Shown: positions 2,634 through 18,537, counted from the first letter of the stretch. The stretch: DNA of 20,000 bases from Psammoneis japonica (GCA_008632985.1 QPGO01000002.1:1043048-1063047), one strand, 5' to 3'. The notes: a model not told the origin generated them from the sequence alone. Numbers and translations are program-made.

Positions 2634-3149
2634 TTTACTTGTCAACTTCGTCTTTTGCTTCGTCGAGCTACAGATGCGACTCTTTAAAGAGGGGTCGCCT
2701 TACGTGCAGTGCTCAAGGGGCGAGGTGTTAAAGGGGCGACGGTTCTTCTTGCTCTCAGGGTTGCTGTTCTTGGTTGTTTCGTTTTTTCGTTGAACAGCGA
2801 ACAGCGGTGACACGAAAAATCTTTGTACTGATAGCTGGAGGTAAGGTTATGGGTCCAGGGCGGCCGGTCCCTGCTCGCTTGTTTTAGCTTGAATTCTGTC
2901 ATTGTTTTAGCGTGCTTCACCGTGGTGAAAACCGCATGCCACAAGTTTGTAACGGGGTTTCCGCCATGGGACTTACATCAGAATTATGTTCTTCATGGTG
3001 TGTCAAATGATCGACGTGATTGTCCCATGGCAGAAGACTGATTTTTTAGAAAGCCAATGACCACCAGCAAGGAGCGAGCGAGATGAGCGGTCTTTGATTG
3101 TTCAAAGGTTGACCAAGAATGGGAGCCAACACCTGGCCCACACCATGTT

Positions 3150-4650
3150 GGCAGCACAGGCATGCTCATGAGTGACAGCTTGGTGGGCCTCTGCAATTAA
3201 GGTGCAGAGAGACTGTTGTGGAAGCCATGCCTGGGGAGGTGGACAGTGCACTTGCCAGGAGGGGCTTTGTTTTTGTTCTTGTGGCGCAACATGTGACAGA
3301 GTCACACAAGAACAAGGGCAGCTTTCACACAATTCAGAGATGCCACTGTTGCAGGCTGGCAGCTTGGAGGAGGATGCCAGTCACTGGGCCTGTCATGGTG
3401 ACTGAGCCCTTTCCTTTGCAACTTGCAAGCTGGTGTGTGTGTTTTGTCACAGCCCGCATGGTGGGCTGCATTTTCCCGCACATGTCAACCATGCTGCCTG
3501 CCACTGCCTCCTCTTGGAGCATCATGCCAGCCAGTTCAAGATCCAAATCATTGATGACCCCACCCACCTGAGTTGGCATCTTGTGTGGCGCAGCTTTGAA
3601 GATCTGTGCCGGAGGCCGTCAGCGAGAAATCTCGTCATTTGGCCCCAGCAGCAAGGCACCTCTGAGCTCCAGTTTGGCAGCACTGGTGCAGGCACACCAC
3701 AGAAGTGTTCTTTGGCAGCAGAAAAGAGTTTGGCCAGTTGTGTGGGGCATGGCACCATGTCTGAAGCTGGCATTTGGCACCTGAGTCTGTGAAAGACATG
3801 GGAGAGTTTTGCAAGTTTGACAACATCAGCTGAAAAACACAAAGCATCAATGATCCAACCCAGGATGACCCTGATGGCCAGCCATTTGGTCCCCCCCCCC
3901 CCCTCCTTCAAGAGCTTCTCAAGGGATGTGGTTTCTCTGCAGCAGTGGTCATTGGCTCACATGTTGAGCAAGCAGGAGAGCTGGTGGTTGTTGACATGGA
4001 GGCATTCTTGATGGCACAGATGATTGAGCCAAGCCTTGCAACCTTCTTGCATGACTCCAACATTGTTGTCTGGGTGAAGAACATCAAAATGTTGGAACTG
4101 CCTTCAGCTCTCAGCAGCATCTCTTCCATTGAATTGACTTTGGATCCATGAGCTTTTGCAAATGGCTGGCATGTGTTGGTTGGTCAGCAGGCAGAACATT
4201 GACTTGCAATGCCTTGTCTCATGGGCTGCCACCTGCTCCAGTGGGTGCACTGGAGGAGGACCCCATGCAGCAGCTGTGCATGCATTGGCCAAATCCGTTG
4301 GTGCCCACAAAAAAGCAAAACAGACTTTTGACCCAGCCCTTGGACAGAGCCAATGAAAAGGTGATGAGAGGCTCTTTGACCAGACCTTCCAGAGATGCCA
4401 AACCTGGTTTGGGTGTGTCAGCAGGCTTCAAGCCCACCCCAGAGAACCCGTTGGCATGATCCAGCTTGATGAGATAAAAACTGGAGATCTTGTGTGGGAC
4501 TCGACCCAGCATGCATCTGAATTGCATGGCTTCTGGCATCTGTGAGTGGTTAAACAAAAAGTGGAAGCAGATCGGGCAGACAATGAGAGGTGGAGTAGAA
4601 GGAAAGAAAAATGTTGGGGACACATTGCGATTGTCAGGTGATGGACAATT
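3150..4650 (-). mobile_element. Decayed DIRS/Ngaro-like (tyrosine-recombinase class) retrotransposon pol fragment (RT + RNase H), multiply frameshifted
   Basis: Colinear minus-strand remnants of motifs I recognise from this class: PEAMQF, YLIKLDHANGF (KxDxADGF), EPLITFSLALSKGWVKSLFCF (PLALPMGWxESPPYF), DLANA, HVNN at 3987-3998 (YVDD), KW...VILGWIID, CPTQLAKL (RPTRxAEL), INDLDLELAG (TNSDLELAG), KGSVTMTGP...LLQ (RNase H). No gag, recombinase or terminal repeats were recognised. Boundaries are approximate. Confidence 0.85.
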
Positions 4651-5109
4651 GTTTGCTGTTATGGACAAAGATGATTAGAGGAGTGCGCGAATGACACGTT
4701 TGTTTCCTCAGCGCGAGTTTATGCGAACGTCTGTGACAACAATTCAGGACGCAAGGAATGGGCAGGGAAAATAATTAGAAGCGCTGTCAACGAACATCTG
4801 GGAAAGCGAGAGCGAATCGCCCTCTCTGGATGTGGAAGGCTCCTCGTCGTTTCTTCCGAAAGGAGAGAACTGCGCAAAAGCTTGAGAGGTGCTCAATCCC
4901 TTAAAAAGTTGAGAATTCACACGTTATCAGAATGGGATTTACAGAACGAAAGCTACAAAAACAACAACAGCTTAAAGGTTGTCTCAAGCCTGCTGGCCGA
5001 TTTTAAGTAGAATTCACTCAAAACGTACTCTACATGTTGCCTTAGTTTTGCATTAAATGTGCTTACCAGCTGACTGGGTGGTTAGCGTTCTCCTGCTCTC
5101 TCGCTCTCT

Positions 5110-5661
5110 CTAGCGCTTGGACTTGCCACTAAGGCCAACTTCCATGAGTACGTTCCCGGAAATAGCAACGCTAGCCGCAAGTCCCGCTGTGTACGCCAAG
5201 GCACGAAAGGGTTGCTTCTGAACGAAGTAGTAAAGGAAGAAATGCGACAAGCGCGCGTATACAAAGGTCGTGACGGCTGTCGGAGCCCAAGCTGGTAGAG
5301 TGGCAGTGGCATACGGCCAGAGAGTAGCCACGGCAAAAAAGAATGGCTCGTTTTCGGTCGCGTTGCGTTCCATGGACTGGAGACGGTACAGATCATTCTC
5401 ACTTGTACCCGCCTTGACAAAGCAACCCATGGCGTAGTAAAAAAGGTTGAAAAAGCCTCCTCCGGTTGGATCGACCCACTTGGACGGATTGCTCTCGGGT
5501 GTTCCGTCGCCTCCTTCCTTGTCGGGAATGTTGCCGTACTTTCCCGTGAGGCCATTTGCGAGACGGACTCGAATCACCATTACATGATTAACGCACACTT
5601 TGACCGTCAGAACAGCGGCAGCCCATGCTAGAGTCTTGTTGTACGATTCCGTGCTGCTCAT
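5110..5661 (-). CDS. MAPEG family membrane protein (microsomal glutathione S-transferase / PGES-like), 183 aa
   Basis: ATG at 5661. Four hydrophobic segments, plus RLQSMERNATENEPFF (MAPEG R..H.N..EN equivalent), FVYARLSHFFLY and QPFRALAY motifs. Confidence 0.85.
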   Translation of the reverse strand: MSSTESYNKTLAWAAAVLTVKVCVNHVMVIRVRLANGLTGKYGNIPDKEGGDGTPESNPSKWVDPTGGGFFNLFYYAMGCFVKAGTSENDLYRLQSMERNATENEPFFFAVATLWPYATATLPAWAPTAVTTFVYARLSHFFLYYFVQKQPFRALAYTAGLAASVAISGNVLMEVGLSGKSKR

Positions 5662-5879
5662 GATGATAATGATGACTACGAAGCTGGCGAAAGGTGACTG
5701 CAACAAGACGGCGGCCGCGACTAGCTAGAGAGAGAGGGAGAGTGGAGAGAGTGATGAATAGAGGAAGTGAACAAGAGTTGTTGATGTCAACGTTCGAACG
5801 TTTCGTGGAGCGAAATCTTCTTCCCGCGATGGGAGAGCAACGGACGTACGACAACGGACGTGAAAGAATTTTGCATCAT

Positions 5880-6330
5880 ACATGCATTCGTTCATGATTG
5901 CTTCAGCGGCCACCGCCGTTTCGAACAGTGCAGTTAACTCCGGCTCTAACTCTAGTTTGTGGCAGAGGTCCATTTGCAGAGCTCAAGCTCCAGACTCAAT
6001 CACCACTGGGGTGGGTGGGAGGATCCTTTTAAAGCTGTCTGCCAGCTGTTGGTGCAACAAAACAAAAAACGACAACAGAGAGGACGACCTCGTCAGCCGA
6101 GAGAGACATCGGCAATTGGCGGTCAGGCAAACAGCAAGCATTTGACATCTGTCCTTTGTGGGACAGACTTGAGCCAATCAACAGCCCTTGCATCATCTTC
6201 CCCATTCTGCAGTGGCTGCCTCCACTTCCAGCGGCACAGCCAAGAACGGCGCCCCAGCTCTGACTCCAGCCAGCTGGAAGCAGAGGTCCATTTGCGGAGC
6301 TCCAGACCCAATCACTGGGAGCCTGACACA
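5880..6330 (-). pseudogene. Relic of an intron-containing gene with two copies of a ~35-aa module
   Basis: Identical 16-mer GCAGAGGTCCATTTGC at 5962-5977 and 6280-6295. Minus-strand translations are VIESGA*ALQMDLCHKLELEPELTALF and VIGSGAPQMDLCFQL/LESELG. Between them is an intron-like 3' end (GCTGAC at 6097-6092, pyrimidine tract, CAACAG| at 6046). An in-frame TGA and frameshifts are present. Confidence 0.5.
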
Positions 6331-9090
6331 CAGGCTCCCAGGCCCAGCTTTGATGAGGTTGCCAAAGGCAGACCAAACAAATTCGTGTGGGAAGGCAACA
6401 TGGGCAGGAAGGGAAAGGTCTCAGCACAAGGGAGCTTCTTGGTTGTTGATGCATGAGCTGAGTTTTCACCTTGAGAGAGCCCCCGGGATAAGAAACTTTG
6501 CATGGCAGGCTCAGCTTTGATGCAAAGACAGCACATTGTTTTGTCAGAGAAAGTGTCATTGTCCAATGAATGGGGGCAAGACTTGGCTGCACTGGTCGCA
6601 CGGCACTTCATCAGGCTCATCATGATGTGGGGAAATCATGAGCCACTGTTGTGAAAAAGACATGTTTCATTCAAAACACACCAGTGTTTAAATGCTGTTT
6701 GCCTGGACAACATGGCTGGCATTGTTTGTCATGCAGGCAAGGCTCAAAAACTTCTTTGCAGTCAATGGCAGAGTGTGTTTTGCCCAAATGGCTCATGGTT
6801 TCAGACCAGCATCTGGCATCTTTGGCATCACAGATTGTGGGACATGGGGCACCATCATCATCATGTGGATTGCAAATGGCCACAATGGCTGTCTTTGACA
6901 AAAGAAGCAGGAGAGAGAGTGCTCTCCTGGAGAAAAAAACCCCTCTCAGCTGGCACCACTGTTGAGCTGTGTGGCAAAGGTGGTTGCTGCTGCTGAAGAA
7001 AAGGGTGCTGCTGCTGCTGCTGCTGCTGCTGGAAACAAAGGGTGCAGCAGAGATTCACCACAAAATTGTGCTCACAAGAAAAGATTCAGACCATCAACAT
7101 GTCAATGAGATTGAAAAAATCCCTGCCATGCTTTCCTCAACAGAGACATGATGCTCCAGGAGCCAGCCCTGGGCAGGACTCTGTGTGACATGGGCCCACA
7201 AAATTCTGCATGGGTGCAAGCTTTGCAGTTCATGCACCAGGCAATGGGAACATGTTTGTTTTCAACACCAAATGAATGACCACACAATTGCCCCTCTTCA
7301 TGTTGGGTGTTTTTGAAAACCTGCTTCTGTTCCAGCGCACGCTCTGCACACATTGAAAAATTGCTTTGGAGACAAGAAAACATCAAAAGTGGGTGAATGG
7401 ATTGCCCAACAATTGGGCTGCAAAATGACACAAAATGCAGCCAAAGTCATGCAGAAATGTGTGTGCATGTCACATGGTGCATGATAAAAAATGTCAGCAT
7501 CACAGTTCAGCCAGTGCTGCAAGGCCCCACCTGGAGCTCGGGGGCACCCAGAGCTGCCAACAATCCCTTGGAATGGCCAAGCCTTGCAGCACAAAAGCCT
7601 CACAACAAAAGGCTCAGTTTTTGCATGTTGTCTCACCTGAGCAAACTCCCTGCTTCTCACTCAGATGGACCCACACGGAAGGAGAGCCAACATTCGTGGC
7701 AAGGGTTTTTCAACTCATTGTGTCCTGGAGCCTTCTTCTTGGCCCCAGCTTTTGCAGTGCCTCTCAGAAAGAGACTGTCACCATTGGCTTTTGTGAAAGT
7801 GCAAGAAAGAGTGTGCTCTCAAAGATTGAAAGTTGACTGTGTGAGGATGTCATGCAGGAGGCTGAAAACAAGTCTGAGTTTGAAACTCTTTTTTAAAGTG
7901 GTGCTGCTTTGTTTGTGATCAGCGTGGTTGAACAACATGATGACCCCACATGTGGAAAGTGGAGGTGAGTTTCAATGCAAAAGATTTGTCAATTTTTGCA
8001 GCAAGAACAAGAGATGAAGGCAGCTGCAAAACTTCCCTCTTCCTCCATCTGGAGGTGAGGTCTTGGGAGCTCACACGCATTTGTCTGCTGCCAGTGTGCC
8101 CTGTTCATTGTCATTGCTGCAAGCCAGACATTCATTGCAGTTGACACTTTGCCAAACTGTCCCTGCCACAAGACATCAAGACCCACCTCATGCCCCTCCT
8201 TGAGCAGCACTGCCACTTCACGTCACCCCTGGATGGGTTGGCAGCAACAGATCTGACATTGAAGCAACTCCAGCAACTCTTGCATCAGCAAACTTTGCTC
8301 AGGTCCTGGAGTTCTTGGGGCAGCTGCAGCAAACACTGACAGTGGACTCAGCTCGGGCACTGGGTGGAGCAAAGCAATTCAAGCAACTGTGCCACCACCA
8401 GAGCAGAGGAGCCGACTCAAGCCCCCCAGCCCCCCCCCCCCCCCCAGTGGACATGCTGGCCCAACTCCAGCAACCACAAAGAGCAGCAAACTCAGCTCAA
8501 GCCCTGGTTGCAGTGGAGCTCTGGATTTGGCAGAGTGACTCCATCAGCTGTTGCCAGCAGCAAGCTTGTGTCACATTGGCGGCCTCCCATGCCCAACCAA
8601 CATCTGCGCTGGCAGTTGGGTGTCCCACACGCCACCTGCTGGGCTGAGCCTGGGCTCAGACATTGATGGATGGAAAGATGGATCTCCTCCCTCCTGCTGC
8701 ATCTCTCAGGCTGGCTCCAGCGGAATGGGCACAAGTCCTGAGTTGGGTGCTGGCTCGCTCCTTGCAGAGAGCATGTGGGAAGAAGCAGCGCACCAGCACC
8801 CAATCCTGGCATTGGCAAGTGCTGGCTGTGCGCTGCAGCTGGCTGGCCGCACTTCTCTTGTGACGTGCTGACAAAGCCTCAGATGCAGCAGTTTGTTGTG
8901 TTTTTGTCAATGGCGCTGCCATGATGACGACAAGTGGGGGGGGGCTCATCACTTTCCACCCGAACAACCATGTGAGAAGGAGGAGAATTCAGACAGACGA
9001 TTCCTCACCAGGGCCGCCCGCATGTGGGCAATGCATTGTGGTGCCCTTGGGTGTGTTTCGTGCACAATTCTTCGCAGAAAAGTTTTGCGT
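5960..9090. other. CpG- and TpA-depleted hypermutated island 2 (decayed coding or repeat sequence of unidentified origin)
   Basis: About five TA dinucleotides in ~3.1 kb by manual scan (~6030, 6489, 6689, 7485, 7894), few CG, and abundant TG/CA. Overlapping short ORFs in all frames are Cys/His/Gln/Trp-rich and almost Tyr-free. Confidence 0.85.
7006..7031 (+). repeat. (TGC)8 microsatellite
   Basis: tgctgctgctgctgctgctgctgctg, with a shorter TGC run at ~6985-6995. Confidence 0.95.
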
Positions 9091-9366
9091 GTGTAGATTT
9101 CATGCCAGTGACAAGTGCGGTGACTGGCGGTCACCTTGCCTCTTGAGAGTCAGTCAATGCAGTAAAAAGAGCGCCCTCCCAAAGCAGTGCGGTCGACGCG
9201 GCGGCGGGTGTGGCGGTTATTCCACTGCGATCGGCGGACGCGGCACACTTTTTCTCAAAGACGAACGAACAGTTGCACAGCATTGGCGGCAACAGCTTTT
9301 GGAAAATCGCTCTGCCCTCTGCCATGGCGTTTATTTGCATTGCTACTAGAAGTACTTACAACAAGC

Positions 9367-10833: not shown

Positions 10834-11040
10834 ACATTGTCTTGAGAATAATGTAGCTGGCTTTCCAGAAAGATGCTTGCCATTGTCGAAATGCACAAAA
10901 AATCTGAATAAGTTGAGGCGCCACCTTTTGGCTTGTTCGGGTCGTCGGAAGCCCTCGAGATTTTCCTGTGCACAGAACTGTCATTTCGCGTGGTTATGGG
11001 CAAGAAGGGGCTGCGTGTGATTTAATTTTGAGGTGCTGGT

Positions 11041-12500
11041 NGGTTTACCTTCCATTCACACCTGCCAGTCCTGAACAACCCTTCTCTTGCTTGCCGACAT
11101 GTCAAGCTCATTGTCCGAGTGGCAAACTCTCTGCTTTCGTCCCAGTGTCCAAAAGTGTGAAATTGAGTCAGTCTTTGTTGAAGGCAAGCCTCTTCCTCCT
11201 TGGAAGCCATGTTTTTGCTCCAGACGTTGTGCTGTTCTTGAACCAATTTCTGAATGTGACTGTCCTTTGCTGTTGAAGTGTGGATGCTGTGTGTCCAGTG
11301 CCAAAGAAAGCAACAAACCCTTTCACATGTCTCATTTCATTTCAACCAGTTGTCTCCAGTGGGCATCACTGCAAGGTGGTGCAATGTCTGGCCAACTGCA
11401 CTTGCTTCTGCTGCATCCCCAAGTGTGTGGGCTGGCTGGCACCAGCATTGCCAGGCAAAGGTGGGCTAAAACAGCACTTTGCACCAGTTTTTTTTTTTTG
11501 TGTTGACAAGCCCTCCTCTGGAGTGAGAGAATCTGCTCCCGTTGATTGATGATTTTCAACCGACAAACACCAGCATTCTCTTGGCATCCCACTCTATGAT
11601 GCAGTGGCAATGGTTTGTTTCACACAATGGCTTTTTTAACCTCAATTTCTTTTGGCAGCTTGTGAAAGTTGTGATGTTTGCCCATCCCAGCTCCAGCTTG
11701 CACCGATGATCAAAAGGACAGGTGGGGGTGACGGCTTGCTCCATGCTCTCAACTCTTGACATCAAGCTCCAACAAGCCTTAACCCCTGCCAATGTTTCCA
11801 TGATGTCTGTCATCATGGCCATGTCTTTTGCCTTGGGAGCATCATGGTTTTGCTGCATCACAGCATTGCCAACAACAGATGACGACACAGCATGGTGTGT
11901 GGCTCATTGCGCTCAATTGCAAACAAAGCCTGGATCATGACAATCCCAAAGAGATCACTTTGGACATGACTGTGCAGCAGAAGTGGAGCAACATAGAGTC
12001 CAGCAGGAAACCATCATGATCAGACATTGGGAAACCTGTGAAAAATCTGCATGTTCTGATGTGCGCCCACAAAGAGATCCATCAACCCACTGAACAGCAC
12101 CGCACTTAGACAGGGAGAGAGAGATTCTGTGGTCTGCTTGCACTGGCTGTGGTTGAGTCATTTTAGCATTGTCATGATGCTCTTTCAAGGCCGAGACTTT
12201 GTGCTCTCCTCAGTTTAAAACAAAGAGAGAAGCTCCTTTTTTGGGACTTCAGATGCTGCAGTGACGTGTTGGGGCAAGCAGCTGCATTGTGCTTCCACTT
12301 CAGTGCAGAATGTGGCACAAGAGTTTGAGTTCCCAAACACAGCTTTTTTGTCACAAAAGACATTGTGATCCCAGTGGTGCTTGCCAACTGATTCTTTGTC
12401 CTTCTAGCGTGCAGCCAGCAAATCGCACAATTTCATCAACTGAGCAATGATTGATCAGCAACAGTGGCAGGGGAGTGGAAATCCATGGATCTGCCCCTGC
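11041..12500. other. CpG- and TpA-depleted hypermutated island 3 (origin unidentified)
   Basis: About ten TA in ~1.45 kb by eye, low CG, TG/CA-rich, with Tyr-poor Cys/His-rich ORFs in all frames. It begins at the single N at 11041 and lies between two convergent genes. Confidence 0.8.
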
Positions 12501-13585: not shown

Positions 13586-13926
13586 TGCTTTGCGGTATTT
13601 TTTGACGGAGTTATTTCTGCGGACTGATGTTATTTTTATATTCGTGTATGTACACTTCACTGCGGATTCCGGCTCGCCAAGCCAGCGTCTGCACATCAAC
13701 CTTTTTAAGGAATTCGGAATCCACGTAATGTCTCATTCAAAAAGATTTTGCGTTCGCGTGCGGATCTTTGTCCGCATCCAAATTCAACTCGTACGCAATC
13801 CTATTGGTTACACGTAGAATCCTACGCACGCGTCAGTGTTCCTCAAAACTGACGGTTGGTGCACGTTCCCAACGACGTGAACACGGTGTTGAATCTTGAC
13901 CAACGGCAAAACTAATTGGTGTGACC

Positions 13927-14625
13927 ATGAAGCTCAACCTTGTGCTCCCGCTCTTTTTGGTCGCTTCGGCGTCGGCCTTTGCGCCATCCTCACAAGCATT
14001 TGTCCGGCAATCTGCTCTGCGCATGTCAGATGAACCTCCGACGGAGGCTCCTCCGGCTCCTGCACCAGCAGCACCACCCAAGTCGGAGACAGCCATTGTC
14101 CCCGTCAAGGAAGAGACTGTCGAGTTTACCGCTGGGATTTTGGGTGGTGTTGCCGGCTTTGCTCTTGGTGGACCCGTCTTGGGTGCAATTGGAGCTGCCG
14201 CTGCTAACTACGTCTCCAAGAATGAGGGCGAAGTCTCCGAAGTCGTCTCTACCGTCTCCAAGACCTCGATCGAGCTTTACAATTACCTTGCCAAACTCGA
14301 TAACAAGTACGAGCTACTCACCAAGGCAAAAGGTTCGCTTGAAGATGCTATTGATAAGCTCAAGTCGAAAGGAAATGTTGATCCCGAATCTATTGAAAAG
14401 GTAGAGAAAGCTCTGGCTACTACCAAATCCAAGATTACAGAAATCAATGACGAGTATGATTTGGTTGGTGCCGGTGTTACCGCCCTGGGGGTCGTTGGTG
14501 ACCTTGTCGAGAAGGCCGTTGTGAAGGCTGGTGAACTCAACGAAGAATACAAGCTCACCGATAAGGCAAAGGATGCCTTGAAGACTGCTGTTGAGAAAGC
14601 AAAGGATGCCAAGGCGAGCATGTAA
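13927..14625 (+). CDS. Plastid-targeted protein of unknown function with a glycine-zipper segment and helical repeats, 232 aa
   Basis: Signal peptide MKLNLVLPLFLVASASA followed by FAP (canonical diatom ASAFAP motif) and a Ser/Arg transit peptide. Glycine zipper AGILGGVAGFALGGPVLGAIG. Codon usage looks biased, as in highly expressed genes. Confidence 0.92.
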   Translation: MKLNLVLPLFLVASASAFAPSSQAFVRQSALRMSDEPPTEAPPAPAPAAPPKSETAIVPVKEETVEFTAGILGGVAGFALGGPVLGAIGAAAANYVSKNEGEVSEVVSTVSKTSIELYNYLAKLDNKYELLTKAKGSLEDAIDKLKSKGNVDPESIEKVEKALATTKSKITEINDEYDLVGAGVTALGVVGDLVEKAVVKAGELNEEYKLTDKAKDALKTAVEKAKDAKASM

Positions 14626-16512: not shown

Positions 16513-18445
16513 TCATTGAAATGAATCGACAATCTCTTCGTCGACTACGCTTTCTTCCGTCTCGGTCTTGAAAGCGACCGGGACTTCTTCTGTTACCTTG
16601 GATGCTTTGATCATTTCCCAGGCTTCATTTTTCGCCGCCACGTCGCCAACATTCGCCGTGTACTCTTCGTACTCGTACCCAAACGGTTCTCCCAGGAGAG
16701 GAGTGACGGACTGCGGTAGCGTTCCTTTGCCAGTGACACTGTAGCTTACAATATTCAAAAACATATCAAACGCCACTGGAAACGGAATTCTCACAATGAA
16801 ATTGAGTCCAAACCACATTCGCGCATACCACGTTTCGTGTTTGTCATTGTTGGAAGACCGGGCCATCCCGCCAAGAATCCACCCCACAATTCCAATGGCA
16901 GTCGAAAGAATCCATCAAAGAATCCACGCAGTCCCTCGACATTTTGTTTCATGAGAAATTCTCCTCCAAACACGGCAAAGTTACGCTGACGGATATTGTC
17001 GGGAGACCAAATGGCGTGGTATGCGTTTGCTGCCGCGCGGTCCAAGTTGGGTTCCGACTTTTGCAATTCGGATTGAATGGCCTTGGCCATGTCGGTGGCA
17101 CCCATCATGACGCGACACAAGTGATAACCCGTGCTGGGATGAACCATGGCGGCGGCTCCACCCAAACCCACGACACGCTGGTTCTTGAGTGGGAGTGGAC
17201 CGCCCATGGGAATGTAACAAAATCTAGAACAAGAGAGACACGAGTGAGAATACGAAACGGCATTGAAACATCACATCGATGCAAAGAAAGGAACCAAGCA
17301 AAAACTCACTCTTCCTCTTCAATATCTGTAACTTTAATACCCAAATGTTCCAAACGACGAAAGCATCGGTCCTTGCATTCTTGAAAACTAATCGCTGGAC
17401 GCGCCACGAGGGAGGTTTCTTCGAAAAAAATCGTATTGTCCTTGAGTGGCATGGCATACATAAAGGTGGGAGCCGCCGTAGCTTTTTGCAACCACGTTTC
17501 GTCGGAATCAAAATGATCCGTTCGATAGTCAAACAATGTCATGGCTTCCTTGTCGTAGGGACCAATGCGATCCGCCGACAAGGACGATGATTCATCGACA
17601 TTGACCAAGGCACCGTAGGCAATCTGAAAACCAGGAGGATCATTGGGATAGGATTTGGTGTCCTTGAGGACAAGACCCGTTTCGTGGCCGGTGCAGTCCA
17701 CCACGAGCTTGGCACGAACCATCGTGGGTGTTCCATCCTTGGCCTCGAGTCGAATGGTGGTTCCCTCTTCGTCGTGTACCAGCGACCCGGCGGGAGAATA
17801 CACGTTTGTGCTTGTGGCGGTGGAAATGTGATTGGATTCCAATACACGGTACGAGGTCGAGAGCGATTCTCTCAATGCATACTTGTCGACACGACAATAG
17901 GGACGATCGAGACGTTTTCGTTCTTGTACTGGAATATCAAAAGATCCACCAAAGAAACAATCTGTAACTTGCCATTCTCGATCAATGCATTGTCCGTTCT
18001 TGCCATTCTCCAACTCGACTCCCTGTTGCTTGTAGGCTTGTACAATGGCATCCCATTCATCTCTCCAAACACCATAATTGGGAGCCCATTCCCGATCATA
18101 ATTGGCATCCGCCAATAAAACATTGAGTTGTTTATTGGAATCCAACAAGGATGCAATCGCTCGTGCTGCAGGACCACTCCCGAGAACGAGTACATCACAA
18201 ACCTCATCATAATTTGCATTGAATGATGAAGCAAACAATCTTGTGGTGGAGGCATGACGTTTTTGCTGTAAATTAGTCAAACCAAAACCATTCGTCTGTG
18301 ACAAAGAATCTCCTGACTTGGAATGATAATGTGTCACTCGACTGGATGAGCTTGTAATCCTACTGGAAGAACGATGCAAACCAGGTGAGACCAGAGCCGA
18401 AACCGATCCTGCCGACAACAGCAAGAACGTCCAAGACGTCTTCAT
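16513..18445 (-). CDS. LCYB: Lycopene beta-cyclase, plastid-targeted; 2 exons; apparent 1-nt deletion at ~16851
   Basis: Exon 1 is 18445-17310 and the intron is 17309-17224 (GTGAGT...TTCTAG, 86 nt), joining EEEE-FCYIPMGGPLP. Motifs: DVLVLGSGPA, PNYGVW.DE, FQIAYG, PTFMYAMP, FFEETSLVARP, GGAAAMVHPSTGY, FFDGFFRLP. The frame switches at GWPGLP|NNDKHETW and continues to the stop at 16513. Confidence 0.93.
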
Positions 18446-18537
18446 TTTTTCTCAAGTCAAATGTATTCTCGAAAATATACCAATGGAAGCGATGAGACTC
18501 GCTCTTTAAGTGTCAAGGAACATTCAGGAACGCCGTT

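Follow-up and report, generated by a model that had tools for sequence, protein, structure and literature searches.

Kilobase-scale islands depleted of TpA and CpG and enriched in CpA and TpG on both strands in the Psammoneis japonica genome

Three islands within a gene-dense window of the Psammoneis japonica genome are almost completely stripped of the dinucleotides TpA and CpG and carry a nearly matching surplus of CpA and TpG. The window is the whole 20,000-nt stretch of DNA that was analyzed (GCA_008632985.1, QPGO01000002.1:1043048-1063047), and positions are counted from its first letter. Taken as a whole, the best explanation, to which we assign a probability of about 0.6, is that the island examined most closely is a non-coding relic in which CpG and TpA were converted to CpA and TpG on both strands. 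A first-pass annotation of positions 3700-4480 had arrived at the same mutation rule, and at a two-stranded, DNA-level process rather than a single round of RNA editing, by reading short minus-strand strings as the decayed catalytic motifs of a DIRS-type retrotransposon. The rule is supported by the mass balance of dinucleotides in all three islands and the two-stranded process by the equality of CA and TG counts; the catalytic motifs and residues from which they had been derived support neither.

Three intergenic islands are nearly devoid of TpA and CpG

Island 1 (about 3050-4450, 1401 nt), which is intergenic and holds 3700-4480 for the most part, retains 1 TA and 13 CG, while island 2 (about 6000-9050, 3051 nt) retains 5 TA and 39 CG and island 3 (about 11050-12400, 1351 nt) retains 8 TA and 14 CG. 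Observed-to-expected (O/E) ratios for TA are 0.01, 0.03, and 0.09 in islands 1, 2, and 3, respectively, compared to 0.54 elsewhere in the window, and those for CG are 0.13, 0.19, and 0.18 compared to 0.95. The CA and TG ratios are raised to 1.72-1.87 and 1.76-1.81, respectively (1.87 and 1.78 in island 1), from ~1.2 in the rest of the window. AG is elevated as well (O/E 1.13-1.27 compared to 0.94), as is CT, and AA is not depleted. The edges of the islands are sharp when viewed in 200-nt bins. Outside the islands, TA and CG sites are spaced at a median of 8 nt and a maximum of 79 nt, whereas the longest TA- and CG-free stretch (3634-4295) is a 663-nt gap that runs from the CG at 3633 to the CG at 4296. 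This compositional anomaly is far beyond chance. All of the islands are intergenic, and the host genes that flank them have normal TA and CG content. Because neither TAA nor TAG can occur, TGA is the sole stop codon within the islands, and all six reading frames are open there for up to 91-192 codons.

Some smaller features were also observed along the islands. In the rightmost part of island 2 (8600-9050), 0 TA are found in the 200-nt bins spanning 8601-9000 and 2 TA in the bin 9001-9200; the last TA of the island is at 7894, and CG recovers, with 14 CG sites between 8607 and 9019. As TA is absent while CG recovers, the boundaries of the two depletions are not exactly shared. A perfect (TGC)8.7 microsatellite is located inside island 2 at 7006-7031, and just this (TGC)n tract and one 12-mer pair make up the tandem repeats. 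At the left edge of island 3 there is a single N (11041), and the sequencing run's contig has small indels at 11038-11110.

Reverse transcriptase-like strings on the minus strand

The codons quoted in the first-pass annotation are all found on the minus strand where it had placed them. DHANGF, its motif A (4461-4444; GAT CAT GCC AAC GGG TTC), lies in the frame of a stop-to-stop ORF at 4222-4674, and VKSLFC, its motif B (4332-4315; GTC AAA AGT CTG TTT TGC, the TGC being 4317-4315), follows in the same frame at a spacing of 43 aa. HVNN, its counterpart of YVDD (3998-3987; CAT GTC AAC AAC), is in a frame that differs from that of VKSLFC and is shared with CPTQLAKL (3749-3726), which falls inside ORF 3525-3956. 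In-frame TGA stops occur between the proposed motifs (4106-4104) and between HVNN and CPTQLAKL (3959-3957), and they appear as X65 and X114 of P0001, a 259-aa minus-strand read-through of 3522-4298 in which X stands at TGA. Every reversion proposed for the four strings fits an origin of CA or TG from CG or TA. A second site, HPDN (4076-4065), is in the frame of HVNN, 26 codons upstream of it, and can be reverted to YLDD just as readily. In addition, a run of 12 G at 3893-3904 (minus strand) breaks the supposed coding region, and contigs of the sequencing run stop between 3903 and 3947.

Of the alternatives to our reading, the one that survives best holds that island 1 contains a decayed DIRS-like reverse transcriptase (RT) in which DxADGF, VESPxY, YVDD, and RPTRLAEL can still be read codon by codon, with Tyr to His and Tyr to Cys changes on one strand. 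The four strings do lie in the correct order on one strand with reversions that all conform to the rule, and we nevertheless consider a decayed RT unlikely, starting with the geometry of the proposed motifs. Motif C of RTs normally comes within a few dozen residues of motif B; here, the spacing from VKSLFC to HVNN is 111 aa, with a frame change and stops between them. When all possible reversions in 3050-4450 were enumerated, two twelve-mers, HVNN (3998) and HPDN (4076), were found to be revertible to Y[VILM]DD, and because the two revert equally well, the assignment of motif C is ambiguous. Given the 111-aa gap, the other frame, and the rival HPDN site, the claim that the quoted codons occupy the places of RT motifs is unsupported. 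In dinucleotide shuffles of the same region, at least one revertible site was present in 16 of 100 and at least two in 1 of 100. A single revertible YxDD site is thus unremarkable, while two in one frame constitute a weak hint in favor of an RT. A further weak hint that the minus strand once coded, beside these two sites, comes from the stops within 3700-4480, which number 13 in the minus frames and 28 in the plus frames.

Homology searches were carried out with a range of sequence pieces and databases, and none of them gave an RT, RNase H, or recombinase signal, leaving the annotation's assignment to DIRS, or to any recognizable RT, without a match. Pfam returned 0 families for four focal pieces including P0001 (E≤10) and, for 15 ORF pieces (E≤1), only chance-level matches and the MAPEG family of the neighboring gene. 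A check against RT and RNase H profiles had been suggested along with the annotation, and Pfam searches of the 112 stop-to-stop ORFs in the three islands that reach 50 aa (E≤0.5) yielded no such family, nor an integrase or recombinase. With phmmer, P0001 had 0 hits among 1.84 billion representative proteins (E≤0.001), and P0001 and ORF 4222-4674 had 0 hits each in the PDB (E≤10). A word-index protein search among longer proteins with ORF 4222-4674 (E≤0.01) and another with its residues 40-135 (E≤10) found no match, and these Pfam, phmmer, PDB, and word-index searches were equally free of tyrosine recombinases. The ESM Atlas provided no usable match, scans of viral contigs with two ORFs found no relative, and two pattern scans of metagenome contigs, in which Y or R was allowed at each CA/TG step so that unmutated copies could match, gave 0 matches. 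Rfam at its gathering threshold likewise gave 0 matches, and neither a repeat search nor self-blastn found terminal or internal complementary repeats around island 1.

Codon structure was also sought in the nucleotide sequence. A 3-nt periodicity is absent from island 1 (p=0.78) as well as from 3522-3956, 3960-4298, and 4222-4560 (p=0.39, 0.16, and 0.27, respectively), whereas three real genes of the window used as controls display it at p≤1e-4. With neither homology signal nor codon periodicity, the proposed descent of HVNN, VKSLFC, and the other strings from YVDD, VESPxY, and their counterparts is unsupported, as are the "ancestral residues" of the annotation, which were taken from a presumed family consensus rather than from an aligned relative. 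The same holds for the argument that Tyr to His and Tyr to Cys changes on a single strand reveal a two-stranded process; it was not established, as His and Cys codons can be reached from Arg (CGY) in addition to Tyr (TAY).

The mutation rule could not by itself have hidden an RT. After complete in silico conversion of CG and TA to CA or TG in seven genes of the window (50 replicates each), protein identity was still 79-86%, so that an RT altered merely by the rule would be detectable. As none was detected, the island either never encoded an RT or has undergone many further changes and frame shifts, and in the latter case codon-by-codon ancestry cannot be trusted. CA and TG together account for 318 of the 1400 dinucleotide steps in island 1. 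Since about one in four steps there is in this sense "revertible", the likeness to RT catalytic motifs, which is not demonstrable, may be coincidental. With respect to DIRS and other tyrosine-recombinase retrotransposons, the likeness consists only of the resemblance of motifs proposed in the annotation, and the difference is that RT, RNase H, recombinase, and terminal repeats all went undetected here.

Copies of island sequence elsewhere in the genome

Contigs of the one sample to which all three sequencing runs belong were compared to the window. Those of an accurate-read run show 0 differences from the window over 3261-3903 and 3 over 3947-5847, and the window sequence is real. Relative to a baseline depth of ~55-60, depth reaches 398 at 2844-3187, 199 at 5940-6283, 1010 at 7316-7659, and 247 at 11100-11443, indicating that the genome contains further copies of some island segments. 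Within 3700-4480, depth is 52-77 when copies of at least 80% identity are counted, and this region is therefore essentially single copy at that identity.

The window differs from the other copies in run X1 by 107 transitions and 53 transversions. At least four of the differences listed are adjacent CA/TG swaps (8511/12, 8536/37, 8718/19, and 8886/87), several are CG/CA alternations, and a lone TA difference among them is found at 7485, where the window has TA and the other copies have CA. A loose-end consensus of the other copies has CG where the window has TG. Taken together, these differences indicate that ancestral CG and TA sites were resolved independently after duplication.

At 7400-7435 lies a 36-nt unit whose core is palindromic (GCCCAA..TTGGGC). 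Run X1 has at least 21 contigs with this unit, and their summed depth is in the thousands compared to ~55-60 for single-copy DNA; the flanks of its other copies are related and keep CG where the window has TG. The unit probably belongs to a family of dispersed repeats. A direct duplication (5904-6005 and 6210-6317) at the left edge of island 2 has ~75% identity after pyrimidine-purine steps are recoded, and 81% identity over 42 nt in the raw sequence. Between the islands, self-blastn found no match. Three candidate relationships between islands were rejected: a collinear tblastx chain of islands 1 and 2 (E=1.2e-5) was equaled in 2 of 60 dinucleotide shuffles, blastn with pyrimidine-purine steps recoded alike did not outperform shuffles (p=0.2, 0.37, and 0.1; 100 each), and a local alignment of HPDN (island 1, 4076) with CLDN (island 2, ~6690), with CA opposite TG in two codons, was within shuffle noise.

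Dinucleotide mass balance and strand symmetry

The number of dinucleotides lost from each island was compared to the number gained, with expected values taken from the remainder of the window. Island 1 is missing 121.1 CG and TA and has a surplus of 108.1 CA and TG; for island 2 the corresponding values are 246.4 and 213.4, and for island 3 they are 100.5 and 96.1. Missing CG alone (~80, ~155, and ~58 in islands 1, 2, and 3, respectively) is too small to provide the CA and TG surplus, and loss of TA must therefore contribute to it. By arithmetic from this balance, ~64-90% of the missing TA is back as CA or TG. The balance supports the conversion of CG to TG or CA, and of TA to TG or CA, by transitions. 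That the change ran from TA to CA and TG, as opposed to a native lack of TA, rests on this mass balance and on a few differences between paralogues.

The direction of change is what separates our reading from one in which TA and CG are natively absent or are selected against, for example in virus-derived or other foreign DNA or in a spacer that lacks TATA-like and methylatable sites. CpG and UpA avoidance is described for many RNA viruses in an excerpted source (PMC5659819), and no ancestor with TA was recovered here, as such avoidance would have it. We give this reading little credence, however, for the gain of CA and TG is mass-balanced with the loss of CG and TA, the CA/TG swaps and the paralogues that keep CG point to ongoing mutation, and neither a viral nor any other protein signal was found. 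Moreover, a TA O/E of 0.01-0.09 is far more extreme than values known to be reported for such genomes, and avoidance of this kind would not lead one to expect swaps between paralogues, though with one window to judge by, selection against TA and CG retains some probability.

If the lost TA had been converted on one strand only, CA and TG should be out of balance. On the plus strand, CA/TG counts are 156/162, 347/324, and 142/156 in islands 1, 2, and 3, respectively (binomial p=0.78, 0.40, and 0.45), and a runs test of CA and TG (z=0.79, -0.94, and 0.5) gave no sign of strand-coherent tracts. Had all lost TA become TG on one strand, imbalances of ~41, 91, and 42 would be expected, compared to the observed 6, 23, and 14, values that are 1.6-4.4 SD apart depending on orientation. 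The symmetry of CA and TG between the strands argues against editing of a single-stranded RNA.

This bears directly on a reading in which the RNA of a retroelement was subjected to A-to-I editing with a 5' U preference and then reverse transcribed, alongside ordinary CpG decay. ADAR-type enzymes deaminate adenosine with a preference for a 5' U, which fits a change of TA to TG, and some island segments are indeed repeated in the genome. Nonetheless, we regard RNA editing as very improbable: a process confined to the sense strand would have produced the imbalances given above while CA and TG are balanced in every island, the island ORFs carry no retroelement protein signature, and ADAR enzymes are not known to occur outside animals. 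A sequencing or assembly artefact, such as base-calling errors at modified bases, is scarcely credible. Miscalls that depend on modification would be consistent with the sharp borders of the islands and with an anomaly limited to two palindromic dinucleotides, but contigs assembled from exact 31-letter words at a depth of ~55 show 0-3 differences from the islands per piece, which implies accurate reads, with the caveat that this run may have supplied the assembly itself.

Discussion

Under the explanation that we favor, a relic altered at both dinucleotides on both strands, the self-complementary pyrimidine-purine steps CpG and TpA would have been turned almost fully by transitions into CpA and TpG, on both strands alike. 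The process would act on DNA, or at least be two-stranded, and would be limited to the islands, sparing genes and ordinary intergenic DNA. Island 1 would be the old, non-coding remnant of what was probably a repeat or transposon. For the CpG part, the simplest possibility would be deamination of methylated CpG in silenced repeats, while the TpA part would call for a second, island-specific A:T to G:C process acting at TpA. Such a process may well have been continuing or repeated, because C to T changes at CA would otherwise regenerate TA over the long decay that the absent protein signal implies. Candidate causes for the TpA part include a miscoding A or T modification at TpA, a DNA adenine deaminase, and error-prone repair of the polymerase eta type at WA motifs, the last of these being triggered by T:G mismatches. 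The polymerase eta candidate is weakly echoed by the raised AG and CT ratios; AA, however, is not depleted.

CpG is the textbook hypermutable dinucleotide, and the hallmark of methylation decay, a low CpG O/E with a matching, strand-symmetric excess of TpG and CpA, is observed in the islands: CG O/E is 0.13-0.19, TG and CA are in excess on both strands, and the pattern is found only in silent intergenic islands. Methyl-CpG decay leaves TpA untouched, whereas TA in the islands is purged even more than CG (1, 5, and 8 remaining sites compared to 13, 39, and 14). The purge of TpA is near-total, restricted to the islands, and mass-balanced by a gain of CpA and TpG, and it has no textbook cause.

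Repeat-induced point mutation (RIP) in fungi offers another comparison. It converts CpA to TpA, so that TA becomes enriched. Like the changes described here, RIP is dinucleotide-specific, consists of transitions only, affects both strands, and is regionally bounded. The outcome differs, as the islands lose TA (O/E 0.01-0.09) and gain CA and TG (CA O/E 1.7-1.9), lack strand-coherent tracts, and include a focal region that is single copy at 80% identity or more. RIP is also directed at repeats, and many diatoms are reported to have DNMT4 enzymes, of unknown function, that are relatives of RID, the enzyme behind fungal RIP (PMC9998398). Hyper-editing of retroelements by ADAR-type enzymes resembles the islands in changing A to G preferentially after T or U; it predicts an excess of TG on the sense strand, which is not seen, and no retroelement was demonstrated. 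Finally, error-prone patch repair by polymerase eta, known from somatic hypermutation and from non-canonical mismatch repair, links deamination of C to A:T to G:C changes at TA and AA on both strands. The elevated AG and CT ratios of the islands resemble its effect, but known WA hot spots exceed other sites only a few-fold, whereas the islands have lost nearly all TA and show no depletion of AA.

We tentatively suggest, as a possibility that falls somewhat short of an even chance, that TpA is a second hypermutable dinucleotide beside CpG, targeted through chromatin or repeats and purged on both strands of silent islands more completely than CpG. If so, an undescribed DNA-level activity would underlie it, which might be a DNA adenine deaminase, a modification that makes A or T miscode at TpA, or error-prone repair that is specific for TA and coupled to the deamination of methyl-CpG, and the process would amount to a genome defense similar to RIP with the opposite dinucleotide outcome. 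Excerpts of two studies report that diatom transposons are CpG-methylated and that knockout of DNMT5 abolishes their silencing (PMC2806351, PMC9998398). The available portion of the former makes no mention of a dinucleotide signature (PMC2806351), and the parts of the literature searched gave no account of diatom repeats being purged of TA and CG together.

Should the purge be mutational in origin, it would imply that diatoms, which are major primary producers of the ocean, possess a novel DNA modification, deaminase, or repair bias. It would also provide a simple signature by which silenced diatom DNA could be found, namely kilobase-long tracts that lack TA and CG and have TGA as their sole stop codon. 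There is a practical warning as well: with six frames open for 100-190 codons and roughly one dinucleotide step in four "revertible", motif-spotting and ORF calling in such DNA are especially prone to false positives.

Host genes in the window

A gene for a MAPEG-family protein is located at 5110-5724 on the minus strand (Pfam, 2.2e-09), and a lycopene beta-cyclase, split over several ORFs, at 16513-18451, also on the minus strand; the best matches of the lycopene-cyclase ORF are in diatoms, with 55-68% identity. At 13900-14625 on the plus strand, a protein is encoded with an ASAFAP-type motif, which we take to be a plastid signal. Two minus-strand ORFs, 3-112 and 2470-2579, share a segment of 71% identity (…HHH.EHA.EM.F..EALGG…THALWVGDE), pointing to a paralogous domain duplicated ~2.5 kb apart.
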